Part shown: in pieces, positions 23,030 to 40,821 of the stretch | Position numbering within the stretch: the first letter of the stretch is position 1 | How the letters are laid out: the number at the start of each line of letters is the position of its first letter | Origin: an uncultured Muribaculaceae bacterium | GTDB lineage: Bacteria; Bacillota_I; Bacilli_A; RF39; UBA660 | Assembly: GCA_964616495.1 (NCBI GenBank) | Contig: CAZTRF010000003.1 | Coordinates: 1 to 45,970 of the forward strand | DNA: 45,970 nt | Reading direction: 5' to 3' | Translations under genes and position numbers: made by a program | Notes under the pieces: model-generated | Databases searched by the model: none | What the model was told of the DNA's origin: nothing | What the model saw: only the letters and a program-made list of their open reading frames with translations

Positions 23030-23030
23030 G

Positions 23031-23059
23031 TTGCATTTAGGAAAACGTAATGCTAAAAT
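23031..23059 (+). promoter_or_regulatory. Sigma-A-type promoter of fibre module 1
   Basis: TTGCAT, a 17-nt spacer, then TAAAAT. Confidence 0.5.
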
Positions 23060-23089
23060 ACTAGTATGGATAGTATTTGGAGGATGAAT

Positions 23090-24169
23090 ATGGAAGGGAG
23101 TGCTGTTTTTAACTATTTAAATTATAAAATTGATTGTTCATATACCTATTTCAAGATAATATGGGAGACATTAGAATCAAAAATAAAGCTTTCTCGAAAT
23201 AATCGAAAAATAGTTCATCAAATCATTAAATATATGTTAGCTAAGGGTGAATTAAAAGAATTATTTGAGGGAGAAGAAATATCTCGAAAATTAACAATCG
23301 AAACTAATAGTAAAATAGTTCAAAAGCAATCACTTTTAATTATAGCTGATTGTGCAACTTGTTTATCATCATATTCGTCTGACATTAAGTCCAATATTAC
23401 TTCAACTGAAGCAATAAAGAAAATCAAGATAAAGTTAGAAAAGGTTTATTCAACTGAAGAACTCGCTTATCTAAAAAAAGAAGAAAAAAAGTTAAAAAAA
23501 GCCTTTGCTGTTGAAAGAAAAACTTTAAAAAGATTTTGGAATAATACAACTAATGATGTTTTTGAAGTAATTTCTGTTCCGATTTTTGGAATAGATTTGA
23601 GTTCCAGCCAAATGATGGATACAAAGCTCAAATGGATGATTAAGGATATTGACAAGGAAAATAAGAATGCAGTAAACAAGATACTAGCCAAATATGGAAT
23701 ACAAGATGAACTTACTATCATTGCCCTTTATGAAATAGAGCTTTTATTGTTAAAGTCACTTAATAATAAAAAATATATTTCGAAGGTATTTGTTGATCTT
23801 AATGATGAGTTTTTTAAAAACAAAAAAAACATTATTAAGTTACAGCAAATAATGAATAGTAAATTTCTTAAATCTAAAATTAATTTAAGAATAAGTAGTT
23901 TTGTATTAGGTTCTTACAGTGATGAACTGTCTTTGCTAAAAGAAAAAGAATTTGAATTTTCTTTAAATGAAATGGTTAATATGGAAGAAAAAAGTCTAAA
24001 TAAAATGTTAACCTATTGTTTTGAAGAATATGAAAAAATCAAAAATAGCAAAGGAAACAAAGAATATTGCAAGAAAAACAATATTAATGTGGTTATTACA
24101 AATGTTAGTAATAACGACAAAATTGTGTTTTGTCAAAAGAATGTAGGTGATTTTTTTAGAAAAACATAA
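23090..24169 (+). CDS. Hypothetical cytoplasmic protein, first gene of fibre module 1
   Basis: The ORF is open from 23066. ATG 23090 is the best-placed start, 5 nt after GGAGGA. It has no signal peptide or TM helix and no family recognised. Confidence 0.6.
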   Translation: MEGSAVFNYLNYKIDCSYTYFKIIWETLESKIKLSRNNRKIVHQIIKYMLAKGELKELFEGEEISRKLTIETNSKIVQKQSLLIIADCATCLSSYSSDIKSNITSTEAIKKIKIKLEKVYSTEELAYLKKEEKKLKKAFAVERKTLKRFWNNTTNDVFEVISVPIFGIDLSSSQMMDTKLKWMIKDIDKENKNAVNKILAKYGIQDELTIIALYEIELLLLKSLNNKKYISKVFVDLNDEFFKNKKNIIKLQQIMNSKFLKSKINLRISSFVLGSYSDELSLLKEKEFEFSLNEMVNMEEKSLNKMLTYCFEEYEKIKNSKGNKEYCKKNNINVVITNVSNNDKIVFCQKNVGDFFRKT

Positions 24170-24183
24170 TTTAGCTACATGAA

Positions 24184-24894
24184 TTGGCGGTGATGGTTAT
24201 TAAGGAAAAATTGCAAGTTAAAATTAATGCGGAAAAGCTCTATAAAAGAAAACTCCTTACTAGAATATCTTCTTTAGTAGTAGCTTCATCTATGTTAATA
24301 TTGGGCATTTTATATGTTATGTTATACATAGTTAATAAGACTGGTAATTTTACGATAAGCCTAGATCCAAATTTAAAGACGACTAAGAATATAGTTATGT
24401 CTGAAACTTCTACTTTTGAAACTTCAAGCAGCATTTTAAAAGTCAAAGCTTTGGAGTATATGGATAACATTACCGAAAGTTGGATACCAACAACCGTTAC
24501 AATTGATGAAGGCGACCATAGTGCCAACGATTATTTGGCATATACCTTCTTTGTAAAAAATGAAGGGAAAGAAGCCGTTGATTATTATCGAGAGATAAGA
24601 ATTCAATCGGTAATAAAAAACGTTGATAAGGCTGTAAGAATAGCGCTGTATGTAAATGACGTAAAAACTGTATATGCAAAACTAGCTGAAAACGGTTTGC
24701 CAGAACCTGGAACAACACCATTTCTATCAAGAGACTTAATTTTAAAAGATGATCGAAATGATTTTAGACCGGAAGATGTTGATAAGTATACAGTTGTAGT
24801 TTGGCTAGAAGGGGAAGACCCTGAATGCGTTGACGATATCATTGGTGGCGAAATGAAAATGTTAATGCAAATTAAAGAACAAGTTGAAGAGTAA
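24184..24894 (+). CDS. Membrane-anchored TasA/camelysin-like paralogue (TapA-like anchor candidate)
   Basis: One TM helix (ISSLVVASSMLILGILYVMLYIV) with no YAWF motif. The body shares blocks with neighbouring paralogues: YLAYTFFVKNEG, AVRIALY and VVVWLEGEDPECVDD. The start is uncertain (TTG 24184, GTG 24190 or ATG 24193). Confidence 0.6.
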   Translation: MAVMVIKEKLQVKINAEKLYKRKLLTRISSLVVASSMLILGILYVMLYIVNKTGNFTISLDPNLKTTKNIVMSETSTFETSSSILKVKALEYMDNITESWIPTTVTIDEGDHSANDYLAYTFFVKNEGKEAVDYYREIRIQSVIKNVDKAVRIALYVNDVKTVYAKLAENGLPEPGTTPFLSRDLILKDDRNDFRPEDVDKYTVVVWLEGEDPECVDDIIGGEMKMLMQIKEQVEE

Positions 24895-24931
24895 TCTTCA
24901 AAAATACAAAGAAATAAAAGGAGAATAGAAA

Positions 24932-25942
24932 ATGAATAAGAAAAAATTATTATCTGCATTTTTGATGTTGCTGATTACAGCAGTAGCCCTAACCACAGCA
25001 TCATATGCATGGTTTACTGAGAATACTACTGTTACCGTTTCTGATTTGGATGTTCAAGTAGATGCAACTAATGGTATTCAGATTTCTACTGATGGTATTA
25101 CTTGGAAAACATCAATTGCAACAACTGATATTACAAGTGGGTATTCTTTTACTGCAGCTGATGAGAGTACGGTTACTGATACCAATCAGTTACCATCAAA
25201 ATTAGTTGCTGTATCTTCTGGTGGGGTGGTTACAACAACTGCTGGGGTTAATAAAGGAAAACTAGAACTATTTAGAGGCGCAATTGATTCAACAACTGGA
25301 ACAAACTATTTAACTTCAGAGGCAACTAGAGAAGCAAAAGGAACATCGGGAGATTTTATTGTATTTGATTTATTTATTCAAACAACAATTGCTGAAGATG
25401 TATATTTAAGCACTGGATCAAACGTTGTTGCAAAACAAGGAACTCAAGATAAAGGTCTTAAAAACGCTGCTCGAGTAGCTTTCTTAAATGAAGGCACTGT
25501 AGCTGTTGGTTCTTCTCAAGAAGCTATCACCACTCAAAGCGGTGCTACTACAGCATGGATATGGGAACCAAACAGTGATTTTCATACTGCCGCTGGTATA
25601 GCTAATTATGTAAGCGTATACGGAAATACTGGCGTTCCTACATCAACTACTATAATGGCAAATTATCCTGCATTTATCGCAGCATTTGCAGTAGGCGATC
25701 AGGTACCTTTAAGTGCTAATGCAACTACACATGCTACTGATTTTGCTACAGTAACACCAGATTTAAAAACACCTGTAACAATAGCTGCTTCATCACATTT
25801 ATTTGCGGCTGCAACAAAAATTCCAGCTGGAGTTACAAAACTAAGAATATATATGTGGGTTGAAGGACAAGATATAGATTGTGAAAACAATGCATCAGGA
25901 ACAGATATAACATTTAAATTACAATTATCAAAGACTGCTTAA
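24932..25942 (+). CDS. TasA/camelysin-superfamily secreted protein with a SipW-cognate signal peptide (candidate major fibre subunit)
   Basis: N-terminus MNKKKLLSAFLMLLITAVALTTASYAWFTEN (compare TasA ...GGGTWAAFND). Strong AAAGGAGAA RBS. The protein is Thr/Ala/Gly-rich and Lys-poor. C-terminal IYMWVEGQDIDCENN block. Confidence 0.75.
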   Translation: MNKKKLLSAFLMLLITAVALTTASYAWFTENTTVTVSDLDVQVDATNGIQISTDGITWKTSIATTDITSGYSFTAADESTVTDTNQLPSKLVAVSSGGVVTTTAGVNKGKLELFRGAIDSTTGTNYLTSEATREAKGTSGDFIVFDLFIQTTIAEDVYLSTGSNVVAKQGTQDKGLKNAARVAFLNEGTVAVGSSQEAITTQSGATTAWIWEPNSDFHTAAGIANYVSVYGNTGVPTSTTIMANYPAFIAAFAVGDQVPLSANATTHATDFATVTPDLKTPVTIAASSHLFAAATKIPAGVTKLRIYMWVEGQDIDCENNASGTDITFKLQLSKTA

Positions 25943-25973
25943 TGGCCGTCATAGATAGCAATGGGGTGAAATA

Positions 25974-26579
25974 ATGAAGAAAGAACCAAAGAAAATTTTA
26001 AAAGTAATTCTTAATGTATTACTATGGATTGTAATTTTAACAGCTGCCGGAGTTACGATAGTTTCTCTTAGTACAAAAGAAAAAGGAGTAGCTACGATAG
26101 GCGGTACAATTCCATATAGTATTCAGTCAGATTCTATGTACCCTACAATTAAAAAGGGAGATTTGATTATTACCAAAAAGTATGATAATGAAAAAACCAC
26201 TTTAAAAGTAGGAGATGTAATTTCATTCTTTGCTTTTGAAGAAGATACCAAAATTGTCAAAACTCACAGAATTACTGAAGTTAATGGAACTGAAACTAGT
26301 ATGGTTTCTTACACTACCAAAGGAGATAATAACTTAGCTGAAGATGAAGTTGAAGTGGCACCAGGAGATATTATTTCTGTATGGGAAGGAACTAGAATTG
26401 GAAAAGTAGGATACATTTTATCATTTTTAAAATCAAAATATGGTTTCTTAATTTGCATAATATTACCATTATTTGGGATATTTGCATATCAGCTTTATAA
26501 GTTTGTTGCACTTATAATTGATGAGAAAAAAAGAGAAGCTATTAGAGAAATAGAAAAAGCCAAAAAAATGGCTAGATAA
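25974..26579 (+). CDS. sipW: Signal peptidase I, SipW (ER/archaeal) type, copy 1
   Basis: N-terminal TM helix, SDSMYPTIKKGDLII (Ser box), KTHRI (His box), TKGDNNLAEDE and a C-terminal TM helix. Confidence 0.85.
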   Translation: MKKEPKKILKVILNVLLWIVILTAAGVTIVSLSTKEKGVATIGGTIPYSIQSDSMYPTIKKGDLIITKKYDNEKTTLKVGDVISFFAFEEDTKIVKTHRITEVNGTETSMVSYTTKGDNNLAEDEVEVAPGDIISVWEGTRIGKVGYILSFLKSKYGFLICIILPLFGIFAYQLYKFVALIIDEKKREAIREIEKAKKMAR

Positions 26580-26584
26580 AAGCG

Positions 26585-26615
26585 AAAAATCAATTTAGAA
26601 ATAAATTGATTTTTT
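26585..26615 (+). terminator. Rho-independent terminator ending module 1
   Basis: 13-bp stem AAAAATCAATTTA / TAAATTGATTTTT with loop GAAA and a T tail. Confidence 0.75.
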
Positions 26616-26649
26616 CATGGAATTATTTAGGAAAAATAGAGTTATTTTG

Positions 26650-26678
26650 TTGATATATGTCTAGTCAAATGATATAAT
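26650..26678 (+). promoter_or_regulatory. Sigma-A-type promoter of module 2
   Basis: TTGATA, a 17-nt spacer, then TATAAT. Confidence 0.55.
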
Positions 26679-26738
26679 TATTTATAGTGTAATGTATGAT
26701 AATACCCTACTTATACCAATAGTAAATGAGGCATTAAT

Positions 26739-28280
26739 ATGGATATGTTTGTTCGATTCTTATTTGATTTTTTATCCCAGCTCTTTTCAGGAGTGAAAAT
26801 GATTTTTTCAGGAATATTTGAAGGGCTATGGATGATGGTTGACATTCCGGCTTATATAGCAATTATAAAAGATTATAAATTAGAATTTACTGGTGGGCAT
26901 TGGGTCGCTGTTATTTTAGCAGCCTTAATAGTATTAGTTTTAATAGCCGGAATAATTTTACTGCTTTGGTTGCTATTAAGAAAATATGTTAGAATTAGAA
27001 AAAGTCTTGTAGAACAGGAAACTCTTTTAGAAGAAGTTGCTGAGTTAAATCGAAGCGTATTAACCCTTACTCAAGAGAAAGATAGAATTCTTGCAATGAA
27101 AGTTAGTCAATTGGGTCTAAAGCCTACTGATTCTCCAGAGCTTAGCCTTGAAGGAGAAAAAACTGATGGTGATACGAACGAGGTGGCTACTGAAGAAGGA
27201 GCAAGCCGATTCTTTAAACTTACTCAAATTGATGAAGCAATGAAAACCTATGTGGCTGAGCCATCAAATAACGATTATACATTAGAAAGCTTGTGCGATA
27301 CAATTCGTAACTATGCCGCTAGTCAAATGAGACTTTATTATAAAATTAAAATAATTAGATTGTTTATAGCTTCATTAGCTTCTTCAAGATTAATTATTTT
27401 ACAAGGTATATCTGGAACTGGTAAAACTTCTTTGCCTTATTGCATTGGTAAGTTCTTAAGCAATGATGCTATTATTGCTTCGGTTCAACCATCATGGCGT
27501 GATCGTACCGAGTTATTTGGGTACTTTAACGAATTTACAAAAAAATTCAATGAAACTGAAGTTTTAAGAGCAATGTATGAGGCAACATATGTTGATAAAA
27601 TTTATTTAACTATTTTGGATGAAATGAACATTGCCCGTGTTGAATATTATTTTGCGGAAATGCTATCTATTTTGGAAATGCCTAGTAGAGATGAATGGAT
27701 TATCGATTTAGTACCAAATCCTTGGCCAAATGATCCGATAAAAATGCCTGGTGGTAAATTAAAACTTCCTGATAACATGTGGTATATCGGAACCATCAAC
27801 AACGATGACTCAACATTTATGGTTACCGATAAAGTTTATGACCGTGCTATGCCAATAAATATTAATGAAAAAGGGGCCCCTTTTGAAGCACCGGTAACAG
27901 AAGGAATGAATTTAAGTAGTAAGTTCTTAGAAAGTTTATTTCAAGAGGCTTATCAGAAACATCCGGTAAGTCAAGAATGCTTAGACAAAATTGAACTTAT
28001 GGATGACTATGTTATTGAACATTTTAGATTAGCGTTTGGTAACCGTATTGTTAAACAACTAAAAGATTTTGTTCCAGCTTATGTTGCTTGTGGTGGTACA
28101 GAAATTGATGGAGTTGACTATTTAATAGCCAATAAGATATTAAGAAAATTTGAACAATTAAATTTAGCGTTCATACGAGATGAAGTAGATGGCTTTATTA
28201 AATTTCTAGATAAAGAATTTGGTAAAGAAAATATGGGCGAATGTAAAGATTATTTAAATAGATTAAAAAGAATGATGTAA
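26739..28280 (+). CDS. Membrane-anchored McrB-like AAA+ (AAA_5) NTPase
   Basis: 513 aa. TM helix WVAVILAALIVLVLIAGIILLLWLLL, a coiled-coil stretch, an acidic linker and then an AAA+ core: Walker A GISGTGKTS (nt 27405-27431), VQPSWRDRTELFGYFN, Walker B and the McrB signature LTILDEMNIARVEYYFAEMLSILE, and WYIGTINNDDSTFMVTDKVYDRA. Confidence 0.75.
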   Translation: MDMFVRFLFDFLSQLFSGVKMIFSGIFEGLWMMVDIPAYIAIIKDYKLEFTGGHWVAVILAALIVLVLIAGIILLLWLLLRKYVRIRKSLVEQETLLEEVAELNRSVLTLTQEKDRILAMKVSQLGLKPTDSPELSLEGEKTDGDTNEVATEEGASRFFKLTQIDEAMKTYVAEPSNNDYTLESLCDTIRNYAASQMRLYYKIKIIRLFIASLASSRLIILQGISGTGKTSLPYCIGKFLSNDAIIASVQPSWRDRTELFGYFNEFTKKFNETEVLRAMYEATYVDKIYLTILDEMNIARVEYYFAEMLSILEMPSRDEWIIDLVPNPWPNDPIKMPGGKLKLPDNMWYIGTINNDDSTFMVTDKVYDRAMPININEKGAPFEAPVTEGMNLSSKFLESLFQEAYQKHPVSQECLDKIELMDDYVIEHFRLAFGNRIVKQLKDFVPAYVACGGTEIDGVDYLIANKILRKFEQLNLAFIRDEVDGFIKFLDKEFGKENMGECKDYLNRLKRMM

Positions 28281-28290
28281 GGAGAGGACT

Positions 28291-29418
28291 ATGGAAGACA
28301 ATAAATTCTTTTCAATTGTTAATAACATTGGCGAAGATTCTATAGAGTCTTTCCTAGAACGAAACAGTTCACAAACAAATGTTACAATTGATTATGAAAA
28401 AATAGAATTTGATTATTCGTGGTTAGAAAAAATAGAGATTACTATTCCCTATTTGGATAATATAGTTAGAAATCCCAAACGATTTATTATGCAAGAGGAA
28501 GAAATAGTACCGGTCGAAAAGGCTAGAAAAATAACCGTTGAAACAGTAAAGCATCTGGCTACTCATACTAATCTAATTCAAGATATTAGTGATGAAGGAG
28601 ATATAACTCCTAGTCATTTATTAAATATTCATAAAGAAGAAAGCTTTGATATTTATGAAAATCGATTTATTTATTCTTTACTAGTAAATTTGCAAATGTT
28701 TATAAAAAGAAGGTCAGAAGTTTCGGCTTCAGGATCAAGCTGTAAATCGTATAAAAAGTTAAATTATATAGGAGAAACAGTAATTGGGGATGAAAAAGTA
28801 AAAATGTCGGTAGACTTAGAAGCCAATAATTACGATGATCTCGTTAATAAAGATGTTAGTAAATTAAGCTTATCTGATCGTATTGGCAGAGTTTCTTTAA
28901 TAGTTAGTGACTTTATGAAAAGTGCTTTTATTAGAGATTTAACCAGTGGCCAAATTCAACCGGTTAGGTCACCAATTACTAAAACAAACACTATTTTAAA
29001 AAACACCAACTTTCAAAAAGCACTGGAATTATGGGAATTTATTGAAAGATATGATGTGAATTCCAAGTCGGAGAAAAAAGATAATCGTTCTTTTGAAGAC
29101 AAAGGCGAAATAAAAGACAACATGGATATGAGTTTTTTAGTTAATTATTTAATTTTAAACGATGCTTTTGAAGGAACTAAGCCTCAAGCACAAGCCGTTA
29201 AGAAATATTATTTAACTAAGGTTATTAAAGATTTTGTTGATAAGAATGACATGGATCAAAAAGAATTTATTAAACTATTAAGTGAAGAATTTAATATTTT
29301 AAATAAAGAAAAATTGGTTAAAGAAAAATATTTTGTTGATTTGTTTAAAAAGGCCATTAAGAAATATTATAATCATCGTAAAAATTTGCTTAAAAAAATT
29401 GTTATAAAGGTGACTTAA
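28291..29418 (+). CDS. McrC N-terminal / DUF2357-like partner protein with no recognisable nuclease motif
   Basis: Starts 10 nt after the AAA+ gene. SFDIYENRFIYSLLVNLQMFIKRR and NTNFQKALELWEFIERY resemble the DUF2357/McrC N-terminal region. I see no PD-(D/E)xK pattern. The C-terminus is Lys-rich, and the stop overlaps the next ATG (TAATG). Confidence 0.55.
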   Translation: MEDNKFFSIVNNIGEDSIESFLERNSSQTNVTIDYEKIEFDYSWLEKIEITIPYLDNIVRNPKRFIMQEEEIVPVEKARKITVETVKHLATHTNLIQDISDEGDITPSHLLNIHKEESFDIYENRFIYSLLVNLQMFIKRRSEVSASGSSCKSYKKLNYIGETVIGDEKVKMSVDLEANNYDDLVNKDVSKLSLSDRIGRVSLIVSDFMKSAFIRDLTSGQIQPVRSPITKTNTILKNTNFQKALELWEFIERYDVNSKSEKKDNRSFEDKGEIKDNMDMSFLVNYLILNDAFEGTKPQAQAVKKYYLTKVIKDFVDKNDMDQKEFIKLLSEEFNILNKEKLVKEKYFVDLFKKAIKKYYNHRKNLLKKIVIKVT

Positions 29419-30551
29419 TGAGCAGAGAGTCTAAGAAAAAGATTTTTGGAGGAATGATAAAACTAATTGGAATATTAATAGGATTTTATATTGCTAGTTA
29501 TGCCTGGTTTAATAGCAATGAAGAAACTAGATTAGGAAATATTGAGATAGGCACTGATAAATTTAACAAAGTATATATGTCTATAGATGAGGGGACTACT
29601 TGGGATACATCGTTAGATGTTAATATTACTAATAATTTTAAATTTAGTAATGAAGTTACTAGTGATGGAGTTAGCTTTTACAAAGCAGCTAATAAAAGAG
29701 ATGATGGTACTCCAATATCATTTAGAGCAGCAACTGCTAATTCGGATTATTTTGAATTTAATGTTTGGTTTAAAGCTGAACAGAATTCCGGGATATTCCT
29801 AGATCAATCTTCTTCTATTGAACCGGAAGTTGGAACTGGAGCTGAGGTGTTAATTGGAAATACAGCTTTAAATATTAGTGGATATGGCCCTTTTAGCAAA
29901 GATTTAATAGCCGGAGGAGTAAGGGTAGCATTTATCAAAAATGATTTGGTAAATGATGAATATGTACCCAAAGTTAACACTCAAATGGTATGGGCTCCTA
30001 ATAAAGGATATGAAATAGTCTATAGCAATGATAGTTATAGTGCTTACTTGAATTCAAGTAATATTCAAAACTATAATTATGTTGACCCCACTGAGCAAGC
30101 ATATTATGTAGAAAAAAGAGTGCCTAATATAAAGGATAACTTAAGGGCAAATGATACTACTTTTAATGCTTATGGAGATCCAACATTGGTTTATATAAAT
30201 AATGATGAAACACCTAATGATATTGAGGTAATGACAATAAGAATTTGGGTAGAAGGAAATGACCGAGATGCTATTTCAGCTCTTAAAGGCGGCAATTTCA
30301 TAATGAAAATGAAATTTGTGTCGATAATGAAAGAACCTAATACAGGCACTCCAATGGTAACGGCTGATACTACTGATAATATTATAAATGATTTTGCAGA
30401 AGGAATGGAATATTCAATAGACTATGGTAACAATTGGATAGGATATGATATTACCCCTAATCCTCAATTTGATTCTTCAACTACTGTTTGGGTAAGATAT
30501 ATTGAAAATGCGACTAGATTTGCATCAGAAAAAACGATTTTGAGCTTTTAG
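29418..30551 (+). CDS. TasA/camelysin-like secreted protein with a SipW-cognate signal and a C-terminal extra domain
   Basis: GILIGFYIASYAWFNSNEE, plus blocks DYFEFNVWFKAEQ, GGVRVAFIKND and IRIWVEGNDRDAIS. A roughly 75-aa C-terminal extension carries MEYSIDYGNNW...TVWVRYIE. Confidence 0.7.
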   Translation: MSRESKKKIFGGMIKLIGILIGFYIASYAWFNSNEETRLGNIEIGTDKFNKVYMSIDEGTTWDTSLDVNITNNFKFSNEVTSDGVSFYKAANKRDDGTPISFRAATANSDYFEFNVWFKAEQNSGIFLDQSSSIEPEVGTGAEVLIGNTALNISGYGPFSKDLIAGGVRVAFIKNDLVNDEYVPKVNTQMVWAPNKGYEIVYSNDSYSAYLNSSNIQNYNYVDPTEQAYYVEKRVPNIKDNLRANDTTFNAYGDPTLVYINNDETPNDIEVMTIRIWVEGNDRDAISALKGGNFIMKMKFVSIMKEPNTGTPMVTADTTDNIINDFAEGMEYSIDYGNNWIGYDITPNPQFDSSTTVWVRYIENATRFASEKTILSF

Positions 30552-30564
30552 AAAGGAAAGTAAC

Positions 30565-31611
30565 ATGAATAGAAAACTAATTATAAAATTAGTTACGATT
30601 GTTGAAATACTAGTTCTTTTTGGAATTGGATCTTATGCATGGTTTGCTGATAAAAGTAGTCCTACTATTTCTCAAAACAATTTTCGTGTTACTTCAGCTG
30701 AAGGGCTAAACATAAAACTAGCCATAGATAGTGCTAGTAGAACAACTATTAACTTAAATGTATTGTTTGCTGATTTTGGATTATTTGAAATAAAACAAGT
30801 TTCTTCAGCTGATGCTATTAACTTTTTTACAATTGATTTTGGAGCCGGTCTATCATATACCAATCCTCGTTATGTTCAACTGCTACCTAATGCATATGGC
30901 CAAATTGATATGGTTGACTATGGTTATATTGAGCATACCTTTTATCTTCAAACTGAAGATTTTGGAAAGCATGTTTATTTTCATAAAGATACCGCCATTA
31001 CAGGAGTGGCAGCCGATGCCATGAGAGTATCATTATCTTATAATATTGATAGCCAAGATTATGTTTATATTTTTGGAACTGAAGAAGAAAATGGAGTTAT
31101 AGGATATACAACTGCAGCGGTAGTAGATGAAGGAGAATTTACATATTCCAGTCCTGATCCTAGTCTTTTAGGTAATCAAACAGTTTATACTTTTGCTAGT
31201 AAAAATGGGGGAAGAGGAACTAGTGATGATGATCCAATCGATTTGGCAAAAACTTTATTTACAATACAACCTAACTCAATTCTTCCAGTAACTATTAAAA
31301 TATGGCTGGAAGGCGGAGATGATGATTGTGATAACACTTTAGCGGATAGCGCGTTAGATGTAATTATAAAATTTGGTAGTGCAAATCAATTATTAGATCC
31401 ACCACTTGTAACACCAAATAACCAATTCTTAACTATTAATGGGCTAACTACCGATATGCAATATGCCTTTACTAATACTTCTGACACCATATGGGCAACA
31501 GTAACTAACACTGGTATTACCTTTAACAATGGTCAAACAGTTTATGTAAGAATAGCGGAGGTTCCGGGGGTAAGCCCTGCTTCACATCCAGCTGTTGTAA
31601 CATTTAACTAG
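30565..31611 (+). CDS. TasA/camelysin-like secreted protein with a SipW-cognate signal and a C-terminal extra domain
   Basis: LFGIGSYAWFADKSS, plus blocks GYIEHTFYLQTED, DAMRVSLSYN and IKIWLEGGDDDCDNT. The C-terminal extension carries MQYAFTNTSDTIW...TVYVRIAE. Confidence 0.7.
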   Translation: MNRKLIIKLVTIVEILVLFGIGSYAWFADKSSPTISQNNFRVTSAEGLNIKLAIDSASRTTINLNVLFADFGLFEIKQVSSADAINFFTIDFGAGLSYTNPRYVQLLPNAYGQIDMVDYGYIEHTFYLQTEDFGKHVYFHKDTAITGVAADAMRVSLSYNIDSQDYVYIFGTEEENGVIGYTTAAVVDEGEFTYSSPDPSLLGNQTVYTFASKNGGRGTSDDDPIDLAKTLFTIQPNSILPVTIKIWLEGGDDDCDNTLADSALDVIIKFGSANQLLDPPLVTPNNQFLTINGLTTDMQYAFTNTSDTIWATVTNTGITFNNGQTVYVRIAEVPGVSPASHPAVVTFN

Positions 31612-31618
31612 GTGAAAT

Positions 31619-32194: not shown

Positions 32195-32207
32195 AAGGAG
32201 AGAAAAC

Positions 32208-32762: not shown

Positions 32763-32794
32763 AAACTGATTAATGTAGAGAAAGGAGGATAAGA

Positions 32795-35700
32795 ATGCAA
32801 AAGAAATTAAATAAATCTATTAGAAATTATTATTACAAGAAAAATTATCGAGATTTTATTTTAAATAAAAATCCTTTAGTATTGTTTAAAAACTTAAAAA
32901 AGTTATTATTTCCAGGATTTAGCAAATTAGAAGATTTAAAAGATAAGCCTAAGGCCATTAAAAAAGCTTTAACTTTTGAAAAAAGAACTTATTTAAAATT
33001 TGCTGTTATTATTGCTATTCTTGTCTTTACTTTCTCTAATTCATTTTCATGGTTATATGAATATTATCTTAGTCATGGCTCATTAATTACCACTGGAGAA
33101 ATTAGTCATGAAATTATTGAATATGATGATACAGGAGCTGCCTTATTAGAAGATTCTATTACTCATACCTTGATTTATGAAACTAATATGAGTAATGTAA
33201 CTAAATCCACAAAGTTTTTAGAGGTTCGTAATACTGGAACTCTAGATATGGAATATAGTGTTTCATTCTCTTTAGAAGGAACCATTGAAGTGTCGGGAAT
33301 AATGTTTTATCGTATTTATGATATAACTAGCGAAGTTAATAATGAAACAATTTCAGCAACTTATCCTACCAGATTACAGGCTTATGCCGCTAACAATCCA
33401 ATAGATCCAGCTTTAGAAACTGATACTACAAAACCAGTTTCTAATATGAGTTTACTTAATAATTTAATTGTTACAGGAACTGTGGAAGTAAATAATGATC
33501 CAACCTTAAATTCTAAATATTATCGTATTGATTATGGCATGTATACGGGAGTCACAACTACGGCCTATCAAGATGATTCTTTTTCAGTTCATTTAAATGT
33601 ATATTCTTCTCAAGTGGGAACCATTTCTAATTCAGCTAATTCTCATATATGGGAAGTTAGTACCGAAACTCAATTACGTGAAGTTTTATTATCATCAAAT
33701 TCAGGTGATACCATTAGACTGATTGATGATATTTCGATAGCTGGTAATTTAGCTATATCAAAAAGAATTAATTTAGATACCAATGATTATATTTTAAATA
33801 TAGCTGGAGATTTAATTTATGATTTTGTTAACTTAGGCAATTTAACTATTGATGTTTCTGGAGAAGGACGTATTAGGGTTGGAAATAACTTTAATATGAC
33901 CGTTCCTAAGGCATCTGTCCATATTATAGGAAATGACAAAAATTATGACTTCTTTGTCGGAGGCACTGTAACTTGGAATGCAATTCAAGATGGTGAAAAT
34001 GATGGTATTTTGTTAGAAAATGTTAATTTTGTCAGTAGTACTCAAACCTTAATGCCAATTAATGTTAATTTATTATCTAATACCAGACTTACTTTAGCTC
34101 CGGGGGTTAGATTAGGATTTGTTTATGCTAATCAAGGGTCAACCAATATTGAAGTTATCAACAATGGTATTATTACGCAATTGCAATTTCAAGATATGAA
34201 TTTACTTGCTACCTTTACTAAAGCACAAATTTACGTTTATAATTTAGGTACTATTTTAGGAGTTGAAGGATCTACTGGTATTCTTTTACCAACAACATCT
34301 ACTCCTTATTTGGGCCCTAATAATGGTAATACTTTAATCGTTAGAGGTATCACATCATCGGATATTACTGTATCTGGATCTCAAAATTACACTCTTATTG
34401 ATATTCAAAATAATTATACTAATTCATCGGTTATTCCTTATAATGTGGTCCCTAATGTAGAGCCGGATTCTTATATGGTCTACATAAGAGAAAATAATGT
34501 TTCGGTAGAAAGTTTATTAACTGAATATTTTGAACAAAGAAACGTTGTTAGTGCTTCAGCAAGCATAACTGGTATTAAGAATTTAATGATTTATACCCTA
34601 AATGCTCAATATGTTGAAAATGAAGATTTCGCATTCTTTAAGAGCACCCGAATTCCAAATTTAGAATATCTAAATTTAGAAAATTCTCGTATTAAAGATG
34701 ATTCTAATGGAACAACTGTTTACAACAAAATTGTAGATGGAGCTATGGAAGGAAAAACCAGTCTAAAAACCTTATTACTTCCTAATACATTAATTGAAAT
34801 AGGAGATTATGCCTTTAATGGAATAGTTTTAGGACATTTATCTAATTTATCATCAGAATCATTTAGTTTTATTACTATTCCTGAGACAGTAGAGGAAATA
34901 GGAGACTATGCCTTCTATAATGCTGAATATGTAAAAATGAGATCAGCTAATGTTCCAACACTTTATGCACATAGCTTTAATACAAGTAATAGCGGTGCTA
35001 AGTATTTTGTTCCTCATGGAAGTATATCTACCTATCAAGAAAACCAATATATTAACGAAATTAATGTTCACGAAACTGCTGATTTATCTGATAATAGGCG
35101 TTACTTCCTTTATGATAGTATCAATGGTGGATATGGAATTTCTTATAATGTTAATAACTTAAATACTTCTACTACTTTAGGTATTCCAGGAACAGAAATT
35201 TATAATGGAACAGAAAAAAATATTACTGCTATCGGAACTTCTGCATATCGTGATTTATCAATAACAAATGCTGAAGGAGTAGCTTTGATTTTGGAGAGCA
35301 CAGTTGCTAAAATAGATGCTTACGCTTTCTATGACTTAAATATTAAATCGGCCTCATTTAGTAGTATTACCGAAGTGGGAGACTATGCTTTTTATAGTGT
35401 GCCTTTAGCTAGAGTTTTTGGAAATAATATTACTAAAATAGGAAATTATGCTTTTTATGAAAGTGGAATAACTAATCTTTCATTAGGCAATATTTCTTCA
35501 ATAGGAAATTATGCCTTTACTAATAATTTATCATTAACTGAAATTGATTTAGGAAATATTAGAACAATAGGAAATTATGCTTTTTCTAATTGTCAATCTA
35601 TTACTAAGGCAACTTTTGATACCATTGAAACCGAAATAGTAAACAATGCTGAAGAAATGAATATTCAACTTGGAACAAATGCTTTAGTGGGAAATTGGGG

Positions 35701-38700
35701 TAGTTATACCGATGGGCGTCTTAGAATCTATGTTCCAAATGGTTTAAGCTCTAATAATGTCAGTTATTTATCTCTTTATAAAAAATTACTTCCTAATGTA
35801 GCTCAATATGTATATCAACAAGGCCTTAATTCAACTATAGCTCAATATGGATATCCATTAGGAACTGATTCTGATACCACTTATACCCATTTAATGGTTC
35901 CTTTTGTTTTTAATGATTATACAGTTAAAGAGGTAAGTTTAACTAATAAAAATGGTAACAGCGTTACCGGATGGGAAATAATTTCATATCAGGGAGCTGA
36001 TTTAAATAATAGTTATGATATTCCTAATAGTATTACTGCTGGCCCTAATAATATTACTTATCCAGTTATTTCGATTGGAGAAGGGGCTTATCGCAATGTT
36101 AATATTGAAACTGACCATATTATTGAAATAGATAATTCTAATTTACTTAAAATAGGTTCTTATGCTTTTTATAATTTAGAGTTAAAAACCATTCATACTC
36201 CTGAAGTTTTACAAATAGGTTCTTATGCTTTTAGTGGAACCAGTTTGGAAGTAGCCCGTTTTGAAAACCTTCAAGTTTTAGGGGATTATGCCTTAACTAG
36301 TATTACTAACTTATATAGTTTAAATATTGGTAAAGTTGCTTTGATGGGATATAATTGTATTTCAGATAATGCTAACTTAGAGCAATTGTTTATTAATAAT
36401 ACAGACTTAAATATCGTATTAAATGGGTCACCATTTGCTAATATTGGAACCAATAGTAATGAACGTCTTAGAATTTATGTTCCAGATAGTACAACCTCCC
36501 TTACATATTATAAAAATTTAATTTCAGAATATGCCGATTACATTTATCCAACCGGAACTATTATTGGTTCTTTCGTTAATGGATCTCTTTATTATGATAT
36601 TGGAGAGTATACGGTTAAAGAGGTTACTTTAAATAATTATGCTAATGAGAGTGTTACGGGATGGGAAATAATTGAGTATCATGGAGCCAATTTATCTAGT
36701 TCCTTTGATATAGCAACTAATTTAACAGCTATTACATCAAACTTAACAGCTTCGGTGGTTAAGGTTGGAAACAATGGCAATGTTTATCAGTATGCAGTTA
36801 CGATTACCAATAATGGTAATACTGGTGTTAGTTCATGGAAAATGAATATGACTTTGCCTTCAAGTGTTACTTATAATTCAGTTTCTAATGCTTTGGTAAC
36901 TAATAATACTACTAGCTTATATATTAGAAATACACCTTCAAATGCAGTAATAGCTGCTGGAGGGACAGCAACGTTTACCATTTACTTAGAGACTTTAATT
37001 ACAAGTTATATGCCATATTTTTCTGATGTTAATGTTACCAATCCAACTGGAACAACTCTTCCGGTAATCTCAGTTGGAAATTATGCCTTTATTCATACTA
37101 TTTCGGAACAAGATGCTAGTATTAATATTACTAATGATAATCTTTTATCAATAGGTATAGATGCTTTTAGAAATATAACCAATATTAAATCTTTAATTTT
37201 AAATGAAGTGTTAACTGTAGGTAGTGGAGCCTTTTATAATAATGCAACCATTGAAACAGTGACTTTCAATCATTTAAATGAAATTAGAGCTAATGCTTTC
37301 GGTAATTCATCAAGATTGTTTAATATTAATTTTGGCAAAGTTACTATTATGGACGCTAATGTTTTAACAAATGCCCCTTATCTAGAACAGGTGTTCTTTG
37401 ATGTTAGACATGTTAACTTAGCTATTGATTATCAATCAATTAATAACGTTGGTTCTCAAGCCAATAATCGTTTAAGATTCTATGTTACTGATGGCACTGA
37501 CACTAATAATATTCCTTATGTTAACACTTATAGAGATTTATTTTTGAATGAATATAAAGACTATTTTTATCCAAAAGGATATATAATTGGAAATTATTCA
37601 CAACCTAATAGTCCTTTTGTTATAGGAGATTATTCGGTTAGAGAAGTAACCGTTAAAGATAAAGACAACAATGATGTGACGGGATGGGAATTTATTGAAT
37701 ATCATGGTGCTGATTTATCCGGAGCATATAATTTCCCGGATGAGGCAACTTATATTAGCAGTACTATATCGGGAGTATTAAGATATAATAGATCTTGGAA
37801 TAACAACGTGACTTATAACGATGAATATTATGTTGATATTTATAATAATGGAACGCTTCCTACAACTTCATGGCAATTTGATCTTGACTATTCATCAGGA
37901 GCTACTGTCACAACATATAGTTGTAATAAAGTAAATGGAGCTAATGGTTTAACTATTACCAATGCCAGTTGGAATAAAACAATTGCTGTAGGAGAATTTG
38001 AAAGTTGTCAGGTTATTATATCTTATTCAAGCCCTGATATTTATGCTTCGATTAGTAATGTTAGACAGGCATCAGATGCTCAAATTACCAATCCGATTGT
38101 TGTGATTGGAGATTATGCCTTTAGTCATGCTTTATCTAATTCTAATACAAGTTTTGATATCATTAATAATGATTTAATTTATATTGGCGATTCAGCTTTT
38201 GATAATTTTACCGGGGCAGTTAATTTATCATCTACCGGAGTTATTGAAGTAGGAGAATATGCCTTTAGAGGCAATCATCTTCAAACTATTAATTTACCTA
38301 ATTTAGTTACTTTAGGACAATATGCTTTTGCTAATAATCCGAACTTATATTATGCTAATTTAGGCAAGACCACTTCTTTACCAAGCAGTGTCTTAGCCGG
38401 AGCAGTTAATTTAACCCAGTTATTCTTAAATAATACCACAATTCCAAATGGATCAACATCTATGAATCTAGCTATTGGAGAAAATGCTTTATTGAATGTT
38501 GGGCAAAATATGGACCAAAGATTTAGAATATATGTTCCGGCTGGAAGTATACCAGGAGCTCAAAATAATTTAACCTATGTAACAGCATACAAAAACACTT
38601 TACCATCATCATTTAGCTTATATATTTATGAAACTGGAACCCTAATAGGAGATAACTACAATCATGGTAGTATTCCTTATGTTATTAAAGAATATATGGT

Positions 38701-40768
38701 TAAAATGACCACTATTGATGGCGTAAATGGTCTTCAAATAATCGATTATCATGGTCCAGATATATCTACTAACTATGCTTATCCTGATACTCTTTATTAT
38801 AATAATGCTAATACTAATGTTATTGCTATTGGTGATGGAGCATTTAGATTAACCGATGTTACTAATAGTTGGACCTTTGATATTGAAACGTCCAACTTAC
38901 AATCGATTGGTGATTATGCATTCTATAATTTTAGTGCAATAGATGTCATTAATACTCCTAATTTAAAAACAGTAGGATCATATGCTTTTAGATATAATAA
39001 TATAAGTTATTTTAGTGCTCCGCAATTAACTAGTATTGGGAATTATGCCTTAGCTGATAATACTTTACTTTATTATGTTGATGCAGGATTAATTGAAGTT
39101 ATATCATATGGTTTATTCTATAATGATGCTGCAATGCTTCAGATGTTTTTTAGAAGTACCCATGATGATTCTACTTCTAGTAGAATGAGTCTAGATATTC
39201 AGGGTGAAGCATTTACTAATATGGGAAATATTTCTTCTAAACGATTTAGAATTTATGTTCCTGATGGAATAGTTCCAAATACGGGAGATACACTTACATA
39301 TTTGCAAGCTTATAAAAATACTTTTCCAACTAGTTTAGCACCATACATTTTTGAAACTGGTTTCTTAGTTGGAGCTTATGTTTATTCAAATACCTATTCT
39401 ATTTTTAATTATATGATTAAAGAAGTAACAATTGACGGAACAACTGGCTGGCAAATAGTTGATTATCATGGTCCAGATGCTGGTGCTTCATTTGTAATGG
39501 ATAGTCCAATGACTAATGCTTTGGGTGAAGAATTACCAGTAATATCTATAGGAGATAATTCATTCAGATATACGATTGCTACGACGGGATCTAATTGGAG
39601 CTTAACTTTACCATCTAGTGTTATTTATATTGGAGACTATGCTTTCTATCAAAGAGATGTGTATGAATTAACGGCTTCTGACTTAATATATATTGGCGAA
39701 AGAGCTTTCTATCAATGTCGTAAATTAACTACTGTAGCTATTGGAGATGCAGAAGTTATATCTGACTATGCTTTCTATAATACAACAGTTTCTACTGTGA
39801 CCTTAGGAGATGATGTTAGTAGTATTGGAAATTATGCTTTCTATAATACCTATGATAACAATGCCTTAAGTAACTTTTATATAATGTCTACAACACCACC
39901 AACCATTTATTCAACAACTTTCCCACCACGAAGAGAATCTTCCAGTTTCTTTGGAACTACCTACTCATTTAATATTACTTTCCATGTTCCATATGCTTAC
40001 CAAGAAGATTATGAAACGGCTCCAAATTGGTCATATTATAAGGGAACTGTACCGGGGCTTTTTGGTAGTACAAGTTATGATAGAATTGTAGGAATTGGAT
40101 CAATAAGTAATAACTACTTTGTTTTTAATATCATTAATACTAATGAAGCTGAAATAGTTGGATATACCAGAACTAGTGTTAGTAATAATAATTTAACAGT
40201 ACCAACTTCGCTTAGAACTAGTAGTAGTAACACTTATTATACAGTTACCTCTATAGCTGGGAATGCTTTTGATAACTTAACAAGCCTAACTAAAATAACT
40301 TTACCAAGTTCTTTAAAAGCCATAGGCGATAATTTCCTTGCTGGTAATAGATCTCTTCAATCTATTAATGTTAGTGGCGGGACCTACTTTACTAGTATTG
40401 ATTCAGTATTATTTAGTTATGATAGAACGGCGTTAATTAAATTCCCATCTGCAAAAACTACAACCAATAATAGTTATGCTATTCCTAGTACAACAAGAGT
40501 CATAGTAGCGGGCGCATTTTCTGGAAATAGATATACTACTCAAGTTACCTTAAATACAGATTTAGTAGCTATTGGAAATGGGGCTTTTGATAATACAACA
40601 AGATTAAATAATTATTATTTTGAAGGAAGTGTTCCTCCTTATTTATTAGGATTTGACGTCTTCCCAGTTTCAAGCAGTTTAAGAATGTACTATAGAACCG
40701 CCTATTTTGATACCTATAATACTAACATTTTCTATTCAAAATATTCTGCTTATGCTTATACATATTAG
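32795..40768 (+). CDS. Giant 2,657-aa surface protein: N-terminal TM/SipW-like signal, TasA-like domain, beta-helix-like region and 5-6 BspA-type LRR modules with two CBM-like inserts
   Basis: AGGAGGA RBS. FAVIIAILVFTFSNSFSWLYE, then FLEVRNTGTLDMEYSVSF (TasA-like). QLREVLLSSNSGDTIRLIDDISIAGNLAISKRINLD looks like a right-handed beta-helix. There are dozens of IG(D/N)YAF(Y/S)N LRR_5 units. Module ends recur as RLRIYVP ... Y(T/S)V(K/R)EV ... VTGWEIIEYHGA(D/N)L. Confidence 0.85.
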   Translation: MQKKLNKSIRNYYYKKNYRDFILNKNPLVLFKNLKKLLFPGFSKLEDLKDKPKAIKKALTFEKRTYLKFAVIIAILVFTFSNSFSWLYEYYLSHGSLITTGEISHEIIEYDDTGAALLEDSITHTLIYETNMSNVTKSTKFLEVRNTGTLDMEYSVSFSLEGTIEVSGIMFYRIYDITSEVNNETISATYPTRLQAYAANNPIDPALETDTTKPVSNMSLLNNLIVTGTVEVNNDPTLNSKYYRIDYGMYTGVTTTAYQDDSFSVHLNVYSSQVGTISNSANSHIWEVSTETQLREVLLSSNSGDTIRLIDDISIAGNLAISKRINLDTNDYILNIAGDLIYDFVNLGNLTIDVSGEGRIRVGNNFNMTVPKASVHIIGNDKNYDFFVGGTVTWNAIQDGENDGILLENVNFVSSTQTLMPINVNLLSNTRLTLAPGVRLGFVYANQGSTNIEVINNGIITQLQFQDMNLLATFTKAQIYVYNLGTILGVEGSTGILLPTTSTPYLGPNNGNTLIVRGITSSDITVSGSQNYTLIDIQNNYTNSSVIPYNVVPNVEPDSYMVYIRENNVSVESLLTEYFEQRNVVSASASITGIKNLMIYTLNAQYVENEDFAFFKSTRIPNLEYLNLENSRIKDDSNGTTVYNKIVDGAMEGKTSLKTLLLPNTLIEIGDYAFNGIVLGHLSNLSSESFSFITIPETVEEIGDYAFYNAEYVKMRSANVPTLYAHSFNTSNSGAKYFVPHGSISTYQENQYINEINVHETADLSDNRRYFLYDSINGGYGISYNVNNLNTSTTLGIPGTEIYNGTEKNITAIGTSAYRDLSITNAEGVALILESTVAKIDAYAFYDLNIKSASFSSITEVGDYAFYSVPLARVFGNNITKIGNYAFYESGITNLSLGNISSIGNYAFTNNLSLTEIDLGNIRTIGNYAFSNCQSITKATFDTIETEIVNNAEEMNIQLGTNALVGNWGSYTDGRLRIYVPNGLSSNNVSYLSLYKKLLPNVAQYVYQQGLNSTIAQYGYPLGTDSDTTYTHLMVPFVFNDYTVKEVSLTNKNGNSVTGWEIISYQGADLNNSYDIPNSITAGPNNITYPVISIGEGAYRNVNIETDHIIEIDNSNLLKIGSYAFYNLELKTIHTPEVLQIGSYAFSGTSLEVARFENLQVLGDYALTSITNLYSLNIGKVALMGYNCISDNANLEQLFINNTDLNIVLNGSPFANIGTNSNERLRIYVPDSTTSLTYYKNLISEYADYIYPTGTIIGSFVNGSLYYDIGEYTVKEVTLNNYANESVTGWEIIEYHGANLSSSFDIATNLTAITSNLTASVVKVGNNGNVYQYAVTITNNGNTGVSSWKMNMTLPSSVTYNSVSNALVTNNTTSLYIRNTPSNAVIAAGGTATFTIYLETLITSYMPYFSDVNVTNPTGTTLPVISVGNYAFIHTISEQDASINITNDNLLSIGIDAFRNITNIKSLILNEVLTVGSGAFYNNATIETVTFNHLNEIRANAFGNSSRLFNINFGKVTIMDANVLTNAPYLEQVFFDVRHVNLAIDYQSINNVGSQANNRLRFYVTDGTDTNNIPYVNTYRDLFLNEYKDYFYPKGYIIGNYSQPNSPFVIGDYSVREVTVKDKDNNDVTGWEFIEYHGADLSGAYNFPDEATYISSTISGVLRYNRSWNNNVTYNDEYYVDIYNNGTLPTTSWQFDLDYSSGATVTTYSCNKVNGANGLTITNASWNKTIAVGEFESCQVIISYSSPDIYASISNVRQASDAQITNPIVVIGDYAFSHALSNSNTSFDIINNDLIYIGDSAFDNFTGAVNLSSTGVIEVGEYAFRGNHLQTINLPNLVTLGQYAFANNPNLYYANLGKTTSLPSSVLAGAVNLTQLFLNNTTIPNGSTSMNLAIGENALLNVGQNMDQRFRIYVPAGSIPGAQNNLTYVTAYKNTLPSSFSLYIYETGTLIGDNYNHGSIPYVIKEYMVKMTTIDGVNGLQIIDYHGPDISTNYAYPDTLYYNNANTNVIAIGDGAFRLTDVTNSWTFDIETSNLQSIGDYAFYNFSAIDVINTPNLKTVGSYAFRYNNISYFSAPQLTSIGNYALADNTLLYYVDAGLIEVISYGLFYNDAAMLQMFFRSTHDDSTSSRMSLDIQGEAFTNMGNISSKRFRIYVPDGIVPNTGDTLTYLQAYKNTFPTSLAPYIFETGFLVGAYVYSNTYSIFNYMIKEVTIDGTTGWQIVDYHGPDAGASFVMDSPMTNALGEELPVISIGDNSFRYTIATTGSNWSLTLPSSVIYIGDYAFYQRDVYELTASDLIYIGERAFYQCRKLTTVAIGDAEVISDYAFYNTTVSTVTLGDDVSSIGNYAFYNTYDNNALSNFYIMSTTPPTIYSTTFPPRRESSSFFGTTYSFNITFHVPYAYQEDYETAPNWSYYKGTVPGLFGSTSYDRIVGIGSISNNYFVFNIINTNEAEIVGYTRTSVSNNNLTVPTSLRTSSSNTYYTVTSIAGNAFDNLTSLTKITLPSSLKAIGDNFLAGNRSLQSINVSGGTYFTSIDSVLFSYDRTALIKFPSAKTTTNNSYAIPSTTRVIVAGAFSGNRYTTQVTLNTDLVAIGNGAFDNTTRLNNYYFEGSVPPYLLGFDVFPVSSSLRMYYRTAYFDTYNTNIFYSKYSAYAYTY

Positions 40769-40789
40769 AAAAACATTAAGTAATTAATT

Positions 40790-40821
40790 AAAACTTTCTA
40801 TTTAAAATAGAAAGTTTTTTT
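40790..40821. terminator. Bidirectional terminator between the giant gene and the ger operon
   Basis: Palindrome AAAACTTTCTA-TTTAAAA-TAGAAAGTTTT with flanking A and T runs. Confidence 0.7.

Follow-up and report, generated by a model that had tools for sequence, protein, structure and literature searches.

The name CoCoPALM was introduced in three sentences of the McrBC census of Bell et al. (eLife 2024, PMC11090510) for a predicted pilus-linked class in which a McrB-like GTPase occurs with a McrC homologue and signal peptidases; its description was left to 'a separate, forthcoming publication'. As published, the class belongs to Bacillota, and the GTPase is fused to an FtsB/FtsL-like transmembrane (TM) helix and a coiled coil; its McrC homologue mostly carries a coiled coil too. 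The supplements of PMC11090510 contain nothing on CoCoPALM, and no later paper using the name was found. An 11-gene cluster in a 45,970-nt stretch of DNA from an uncultured bacterium (GenBank assembly GCA_964616495.1, contig CAZTRF010000003.1, positions 1 to 45,970; hereafter the window) carries the same features, namely a McrB-family AAA+ domain preceded by a TM helix and a coiled coil (gene E), an adjacent McrC homologue with a DUF2357 domain (F) and two signal-peptidase genes (D and J; the genes are lettered A to K in their order, Table 1). Judged from these sequence features, the cluster is a member of the CoCoPALM class, which has been named but has no published anatomy or experiments. 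The published text is silent on TasA-like subunits, a giant leucine-rich-repeat (LRR) protein, protein A, two gene architectures and inactive peptidase paralogues. All of these are added here, with TasA-type signals, subunit families in a '4 + 2' arrangement, a pilin-like N-terminus on the giant protein, A as a partner of the GTPase and dead SipW-like paralogues in the second architecture.

The tapA-sipW-tasA operon of Bacillus subtilis and its TasA fibre (8AUR; PMC9674648, PMC10151520) share with the cluster a dedicated SipW-type peptidase, signals with the predicted end [ST][WY]A↓[AW]F (arrow, cleavage site), a beta-sandwich subunit whose predicted fold is remotely alike and a membrane-associated, paralogue-like accessory protein beside the candidate major subunit; B of the window is positionally like TapA. 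The window subunits are larger (336–377 residues compared with 234 for mature TasA) and have no Peptidase_M73 sequence match. In addition, the cluster exceeds what TasA needs by a second peptidase, at least three minor paralogues, a giant candidate adhesin and a GTPase/McrC/A module. Operons that combine SipW with several TasA/BsaA paralogues have been proposed to form heteropolymers by donor-strand exchange (PMC11580942). The sipW-bsaA-bsaB-bsaC operon of Clostridium perfringens (PMC11580942) is a clostridial example with several remote TasA paralogues, but BsaA oligomers are locked by an Asn-Glu-Lys isopeptide, their secretion needs type IV pilus proteins and the operon has no McrBC-like module. 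AbpA (7UEG) and Pyrodictium CanA are likewise beta-sandwich proteins, processed by signal peptidase I and polymerized by donor strand, as is proposed for the window subunits. The B model retrieved both in Foldseek and the C model AbpA. They differ in being archaeal, single-subunit and without an associated NTPase, and their structural similarity to the window proteins is weak (template-modelling score, TM-score, about 0.25–0.33).

Escherichia coli McrBC (6HZ4, 6UT6) shares its AAA+ GTPase core with E and its McrC N-terminal activating domain with F. Membership of the McrBC type IV restriction systems was nevertheless rejected, because F has no PD-(D/E)xK nuclease and E no DNA-binding domain; moreover, E is predicted to be membrane-anchored and the gene context is one of secretion, not defence. 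A literature search found no paper joining TasA or SipW with a McrB-like GTPase. The initial annotation of the window had presented the combination of duplicate peptidases, graded minor subunits, a giant adhesin and an NTPase pair as new. It is correct that no characterised system combines these parts, but the association of the GTPase with McrC and signal peptidases already had the CoCoPALM name (PMC11090510).

The 11 genes form a real, non-chance grouping, and the strongest result of the analysis is that the cluster is one co-conserved system, as had been proposed from the window alone. Eighty loci were retrieved through E alone and annotated with iterated profiles of the window proteins. 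F adjoins E in all 80; SipW-like genes were seen in 78 loci, pilin-like genes in 78, A in 58, and B and C together in 46. Where the full 10-kb flanks were available, a SipW-like gene lay within 10 kb of E at 40 of 41 loci. The same 11-gene order (A-B-C-SipW-E-F-G-H-I-SipW-giant LRR) was found in a Bacilli metagenome-assembled genome (MAG) and a Clostridia MAG with entirely different flanks, and a 1.7-Mb human-gut genome holds the same parts in a rearranged order. Two architectures were distinguished. Type 1 has the order of the window, with an Oscillospiraceae variant in which G is duplicated and F is lengthened to 600–840 residues. In type 2 the order is SipW-like(s)-A-E-F-SipW-G-B-C, with A directly upstream of E.

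A scan with the E profile of one genome per GTDB species (about 186,000 species representatives) identified at least 585 genomes that carry E, and E forms more than 8000 clusters at 90% identity, which is a lower bound; the system is thus abundant. The carriers, uncultured Bacilli, 'Mycoplasmatota' and Clostridia, come from gut, rumen and fermenters, and in them all components are annotated as 'hypothetical'. The contigs of four loci (L028, L032, L053 and L065) are labelled Acidaminococcus or Muribaculaceae, all other carriers being Bacilli, Clostridia or 'Mycoplasmatota'; the four are probably mis-binned MAG contigs.

E and F had been described as McrB-like and McrC-N-like, and both identifications were borne out. 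When searched against the PDB, the E family profile matched E. coli McrB and no other protein (E-value 1e-5). E itself gave an E-value of 1.3e-4 with the NCBIfam McrB model, under the curated cut-off, and 1.8e-38 with PADLOC PDC-M26A. Walker A (GISGTGKTS), Walker B (ILDEMN) and the DEMNxA motif are all invariant, as is NNDD at residues 354–357. The latter (N354-N-D-D357) is readable as NxD plus a second D, the shortened GTPase signature given for the CoCoPALM branch in place of NxxD; HMMER aligns it ungapped to NTAD of McrB, i.e., also as NxxD. A strong TM helix at residues 58–76 is followed by the heptad-like conserved segment LVEQE.LLEEV..LN..V..L..EK. Over this TM and coiled-coil region, 7 of 10 E orthologues matched FtsL, FtsL_2 or DivIC, all below threshold (E-values 0.013–0.12), and the window copy matched none of the three. 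Relatives of E are 58–79% identical across lineages, far more conserved than the subunits (about 45–55%) or A (14–21%). In one E homologue (P0123, 646 residues), about 130 residues of the C-terminal AAA+ region, NNDD among them, are duplicated internally; this homologue also has a precomputed PF21081 match.

In F, conservation across 87 sequences is confined to residues 40–135 and 225–250. Beyond about residue 250 these sequences have no conserved acidic/Lys motif, only Y286 and a hydrophobic position at 348 being conserved, so that F has no nuclease active site. Likewise, F gave no nuclease match in Pfam, and no other nuclease was found in the cluster. The C-terminal third of F is Lys/Glu-rich.

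Protein A has no TM segment and no match in Pfam or NCBIfam. It evolves very fast, with no invariant residue in the family, and an exhaustive search of 1.8 billion cluster representatives retrieved only three relatives. Two of 30 family members matched EAL (best E-value 0.027), and the family profile matched a designed TIM barrel (E-value 0.0035); neither match is significant. A degenerate EAL (cyclic di-GMP) domain in A is therefore a weak hint, kept as a lead and insufficient for a claim; if the EAL/TIM-barrel fold were true, it would point to cyclic di-GMP control. Judged by gene neighbourhoods, the GTPase E has in A a conserved partner.

The two proteins that had been called SipW signal peptidases, D and J, scored 85.6 and 80.7 bits with TIGR02228, the archaeal/endoplasmic reticulum (ER)-type signal peptidase I model, which has a curated cut-off of 51.85. 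Their catalytic triads are intact (Ser54/His98/Asp124 in D and Ser54/His97/Asp122 in J), that of J being conserved in 99–100% of 85 family members, and D has a TM helix at both its N- and C-terminus. With the Bacillus SipW equivalog model, D and J reached 96 and 59 bits and fell short of the cut-off of 190; they are hence SipW-like rather than SipW orthologues. All 23 type-1 loci, like the window, have two intact SipW-like copies. The upstream paralogue of type-2 loci is without the catalytic Ser and His and usually without the Asp region too (36 of 36 copies; for example L001:394-942, L022:6037-6645, L035 and L049:5714-6265, to be compared with 25974-26579 of the window), whereas the downstream copy retains Ser/His/Asp in about 100%. 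The degenerate copies suggest that the SipW fold has a non-catalytic role too, such as substrate docking.

All five SipW-cognate N-terminal patterns of the initial annotation were recovered. In a survey of the 69 open reading frames (ORFs) of the window, with 16,104 residues in total, the motif [ST][YF][AS]W[FML] occurred five times compared with 0.04 expected from composition. Every occurrence is inside the cluster and immediately C-terminal to a hydrophobic helix; the motif is at residue 24 of C, 27 of G, 23 of H and 25 of I, and the fifth is in K. The strings SYAWFTEN, SYAWFNSN, SYAWFADK, TYSWMLTE and SFSWLYEY were verified in the translations, as was the strand motif FLEVRNTGTLDMEYSVSF reported after the signal of K. 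Among C-family orthologues, 56 of 69 have kept the signal motif. The mature TasA chain (8AUR) begins at A28, which gives the experimentally known site TWA↓AFND, and SYA↓WFTEN of C is in register with it. From the TasA site, cleavage is predicted after S-Y-A in C, G and H. The signal feature itself, a SipW-cognate peptide before an aromatic-rich N-terminal strand, is shared with the TasA family.

Signals of related kinds were seen on further ORFs of the related loci. Camelysin-like signals (GATYAAFES, GATYAFFST and TTYALFQS) occur at L042:6654-7322, L079:4205-5461 and L049:6249-6869, and the small L042 protein came just short of threshold with Peptidase_M73 (E-value 0.0039). A 695-residue protein with Listeria-Bacteroides repeats (L032:3648-5735) has an SSYSLL signal. 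Several kinds of surface protein in these loci therefore share this signal class.

The cluster had been said to contain six TasA/camelysin-like paralogues. Profile comparison with hhalign linked B, C, G and H to one another at 98–99.9% probability (G with C 99.9%, H with G 99.7%, H with C 99.6%, and B with C, G and H 98–99%). I matched the N-terminus of K at 90% over 101 columns, and matched G (65%), C (45%) and H (43%) more weakly over short stretches; the two groups are joined mainly via the signal region (45–82%). In terms of profile similarity the set is therefore '4 + 2', with B, C, G and H as true paralogues and I and the K N-terminus as a second, related pair, rather than six equivalent proteins. 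C has 758 homologues, all unannotated. G carries a Pfam DUF4073 match (4.3e-8), and B has a TM helix at about residues 24–42 of its 236-residue ORF and no SipW motif. Family searches of Pfam, NCBIfam, PADLOC and PHROGs returned nothing usable for the pilin-like proteins or for A.

AlphaFold2 models of B and C, both confident, were used to compare folds. The model of B (predicted local distance difference test, pLDDT, 85.3) has a single long helix followed by a beta-sandwich. C was also modeled as a beta-sandwich (pLDDT 80.5, predicted TM-score 0.83), in which residues 19–37, the predicted new N-terminus, have a pLDDT below 50 and are the sole disordered part of the monomer; this is compatible with donor-strand exchange. 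In a Foldseek search of the PDB, the B model retrieved the TasA fibre (8AUR; E-value 1.6e-3, probability 0.98) and AbpA (7UEG; 2.6e-3), together with CanA, the pilin domain of PapGII and a chaperone–usher pilin. With the C model, 8AUR ranked third (E-value 0.05) and 7UEG eighth among 350,542 chains, neither being significant.

A TasA-family profile was assembled from seven sequences, B. subtilis TasA (identical to chain 8AUR_A) and six Bacillus plasmid 'TasA family' genes. The window subunits matched it with hhalign probabilities of 9–35%, the best being B (35%) through a C-terminal motif; negative controls gave at most 0.3%, and a control that matches through TM helices up to 19%. Three TasA hallmarks were in register: the signal (GGGTYAYFSD with S-Y-A-W-F), the strand NLKPGD..F.l.N.G, and the C-terminal QN.FQGD...F.A.Q with IW.EG.D.DC...GG of B, C, G and H. 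On these models and alignments we read the subunits as beta-sandwich proteins with a TasA-type signal that are remotely TasA/AbpA-like in fold, and a likeness to TasA in working mode is plausible. Of the TasA likeness put forward for the window, the signal pattern was confirmed and the fold is remotely similar, at weak scores; by sequence the proteins fall outside the M73 family.

The giant protein K contains ten LRR_5 stretches (1.5e-111) and two CBM_2 domains, in agreement with its description as a giant LRR protein. Its N-terminus consists of a basic, Lys-rich tail of 66 residues and a hydrophobic helix at residues 69–87, after which SFSWLYEY follows; neither an LPXTG motif nor a C-terminal anchor was seen in K. 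The suggestion that this N-terminus is TasA-like fared only in part. It is related to I, and its first 330 residues aligned at motif level over the whole TasA-family profile; the hhalign probability of that alignment was only 11–30%, at or near the TM-helix control. An orthologous giant protein is encoded at the same position in loci L003–L012. Within residues 1–85 (window 32795–33050), the 66-residue basic segment far exceeds the normal length of a signal n-region. Either the E/F/A module might use it as a cytoplasmic handle, or the start codon could be mis-assigned.

In the model that we favor, with a probability of about 0.6, the cluster assembles a surface fibre or adhesin that is TasA-like and SipW-processed. 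Sec would insert C, G, H, I and K in the membrane through signals ending in the TasA-type [ST][YF][AS]↓W[FML]. Cleavage at this motif by D and J would leave every beta-sandwich subunit with a free new N-terminal strand, which would then insert in the neighboring subunit, as in TasA and archaeal AbpA. C is predicted to polymerize as the major subunit, with G, H and I as minor or priming subunits. K would join via its pilin-like N-terminal module as an adhesive tip, and B, an uncleaved membrane-anchored paralogue, may be the base or nucleator. The gene layout fits this model: C and the anchor B are in a terminator-bounded operon with a strong ribosome-binding site, and the machinery, minor subunits and adhesin are in a second, tightly coupled operon.

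On the cytoplasmic face, E would form a membrane-tethered McrB-type GTPase ring that is activated by F, with A associated with the pair. By analogy with the solved McrBC complexes, the N-domain of F may plug and activate a hexameric E ring that six TM/coiled-coil stalks hold at the membrane. E, F and A appear to be an obligatory conserved part of the machine, and are proposed to gate, time or power subunit hand-over or assembly. A bolder version of the fibre model casts a McrB-derived, membrane-tethered GTPase ring, activated by a nuclease-less McrC, as the exapted motor or gatekeeper of a third, hitherto unrecognized Gram-positive pilus machinery, with Sec/SipW-processed TasA-like pilins, minor-subunit priming and a giant LRR cap; this machinery would be a non-homologous functional analogue of type IV pili and widespread in uncultured gut and rumen Firmicutes. 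We regard this version as tentative and rather doubtful. Type IV pili and type II secretion offer an analogy only, in their membrane-anchored pre-subunits, dedicated peptidase, minor subunits, very large tip adhesin (PilY1), separately transcribed major subunit and cytoplasmic hexameric NTPase. The parts are non-homologous: beta-sandwich compared with alpha-helical subunits, a peptidase of the signal peptidase I type compared with PilD, and a McrB-type NTPase compared with PilB/GspE.

Several observations weigh against the fibre model. To our knowledge, TasA and AbpA fibres need no NTPase, and the model therefore leaves the requirement for a GTPase unexplained. At the sequence level, none of B, C, G, H, I and K matched Peptidase_M73 (PF12389) or a TasA family in Pfam or NCBIfam at an E-value of 0.1 or better. 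The six also had no sequence match in the PDB, where C and its family gave none even at an E-value of 10 (phmmer and hmmsearch). When the C family was aligned by hhalign with the single TasA sequence, the match covered 18 columns and is meaningless, and the probabilities of 9–35% obtained with the TasA profile only modestly exceed the TM-helix control. At the structural level, TM-scores of the Foldseek matches to TasA are low (0.18–0.31), and generic glycosidase beta-sandwich domains outrank TasA and AbpA for the B model. Finally, the 80 loci that underlie the co-conservation are the closest relatives of E (58–67% identity) and not a random sample of the at least 585 genomes.

In one alternative, the beta-sandwich proteins do not polymerize. 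The cluster would then be dedicated to exporting, processing and anchoring K and further large surface proteins, with B, C, G, H and I forming a cell-surface scaffold or sheath of monomers or small oligomers and the GTPase module controlling release or turnover. The top matches of B are domains of carbohydrate enzymes and not pilins, the CBM_2 and LRR_5 domains of K are typical of surface adhesins, giant proteins lie 3' of the cluster in both architectures, and the adhesin-like L032 protein bears the same signal class. We nevertheless consider this alternative unlikely. Of the pilin-like components C is the most widespread, and it also occurs in loci in which a K-type N-terminal module was not detected (18 of 80 loci for the module, compared with the 46 that have B and C); in addition, the donor-strand polymers TasA, AbpA and CanA recur in the fold matches of two paralogues, and the monomer model of C is disordered at its predicted new N-terminus. 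Less probable still is that the system makes a spore-associated appendage or coat fibre in place of a vegetative pilus. The host sporulates, as the cluster adjoins a gerA/gerC/gerB-type germination operon, TasA was first described as spore-associated, and the 5OF1 chain was deposited as 'Spore coat-associated protein N'. However, each of the other lineages examined has different flanking genes, and small-genome Bacilli or 'Mycoplasmatota' MAGs make up many of the carriers; that the promoters are sigma-70-like and not obviously of a sporulation-sigma type is a weaker point.

The reading of E and F as an ordinary McrBC-type anti-phage restriction module lying between two TasA-like matrix operons was rejected and retains very little probability. 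In its favor are the PADLOC and NCBIfam McrB matches of E, the McrC N-domain of F and a G+C content of the cluster (30–33%) above that of the flanks. Against it, neither F nor any other protein of the cluster has a conserved nuclease, and E has a predicted TM helix and coiled coil in place of the McrB DNA-binding domain. The context is one of secretion: SipW-like genes flank E/F in 78 of 80 loci and the stop codon of F overlaps the start of G. Moreover, E is unusually conserved for a defence gene and its surroundings are not a defence island.

If the adhesive fibre is real, gut commensals would have in it a major colonization structure that is unstudied so far. Such a system would, in addition, clearly exemplify the recruitment of the motor of a restriction enzyme to a function in the cell envelope; PcdA of Staphylococcus aureus is a precedent as a co-opted McrB. 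As defence annotators can match E through PDC-M26A, such loci risk being miscounted as anti-phage systems. As a type-1 example the window is compact and complete, having two operons and two intact peptidases, and is suited to heterologous reconstruction.

The positions of genes and transcription signals are given in Table 1. The 11 ORFs and the module 2 gaps (10, -1, 13, 7, 13 and 32 nt, the 1-nt overlap being that of F and G) are exactly as first reported. Candidate promoters at 23031 and 26650 were found by consensus, the latter being the top-scoring sigma-70-like site of the region scan, and the terminators near 26585 and 40790 were recovered by folding. The module 1 terminator has a z of -5.84 relative to shuffled sequences, none of 200 shuffles folding equally well. 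A consensus terminator scan demands G+C-rich stems and so missed both operon terminators, whose stems are rich in A+T. At 22991-23025 a strong hairpin closes the upstream gene, and the module 1 promoter candidate begins just 3' of it; gene C is preceded by the strong ribosome-binding site AAAGGAG. A two-operon layout is plausible from these predicted signals.

Table 1. Genes and candidate transcription signals of the cluster, in window coordinates
Feature	Position	Strand	Remarks
Promoter candidate, module 1	23031..23059	+	TTGCAT-17 nt-TAAAAT; consensus match only; weaker than the 26650 site
A, cytoplasmic partner protein	23066..24169	+	367-residue ORF; database gene call begins at residue 9, position 23090
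B, membrane-anchored TasA-like beta-sandwich	24184..24894	+	236-residue ORF; probable start 24193 (233 residues)
C, candidate major subunit, Thr/Ala-rich	24932..25942	+	Predicted signal end SYA↓WFTEN
D, SipW-like (archaeal/ER-type) signal peptidase 1	25974..26579	+	TIGR02228, 3.3e-24
Intrinsic terminator, module 1	26584..26621	+	Perfect 14-bp hairpin, then U run; -11.3 kcal/mol
Promoter candidate, module 2	26650..26678	+	TTGATA-17-TATAAT, extended -10 TG; 11/12 consensus positions
E, McrB-type AAA+ GTPase, TM helix and coiled coil	26739..28280	+	McrB profile matches
F, McrC N-terminal-domain protein without nuclease	28291..29418	+	DUF2357, 2.8e-11 (Pfam)
G, secreted TasA-like paralogue, candidate minor subunit	29418..30551	+	SYAWFNSN; extra C-terminal DUF4073-like domain
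H, secreted TasA-like paralogue, candidate minor subunit	30565..31611	+	SYAWFADK
I, small secreted protein, candidate minor/adaptor subunit	31619..32194	+	TYSWMLTE; related to K N-terminal module
J, SipW-like signal peptidase 2	32208..32762	+	TIGR02228, 1e-22
K, giant BspA-type LRR protein, 2,657 residues, candidate tip adhesin	32795..40768	+	LRR_5 x10; SFSWLYEY
Terminator, module 2	40790..40825	.	Perfect 13-bp hairpin, then U run; z -4.63; shared with convergent ger operon

The G+C content of the cluster (23000-41000) is 28–34%, compared with 22–27% for most other parts of the window. Both the higher value and the differing genomic contexts elsewhere would fit a unit that moves horizontally as a whole.

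Beyond the module 2 terminator, a gerB/gerC/gerA-type spore germination operon occupies 40798-44439 on the minus strand, which marks the host as a spore-forming Firmicute of very low G+C content (about 24%). On the other side of the cluster are a TMEM43-family membrane protein (21715-22965, plus strand) and, outside the cluster and on the opposite strand, a sortase-domain protein (20667-21491, minus strand). None of the sortase, TMEM43 and ger neighbors is conserved beside the cluster in other lineages. A link to the sortase was rejected because the cluster proteins carry no sorting signals, neither a C-terminal LPXTG motif nor a hydrophobic anchor being found on any of them, and the cluster does not qualify as a sortase pilus. 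Farther upstream, a large serine recombinase (9755-11347; Resolvase, Recombinase and Zn-ribbon domains, DUF4368) and a tRNA-Trp gene (13054-13127) lie about 10–13 kb from the cluster; this region may be the boundary of a mobile element unrelated to the cluster.

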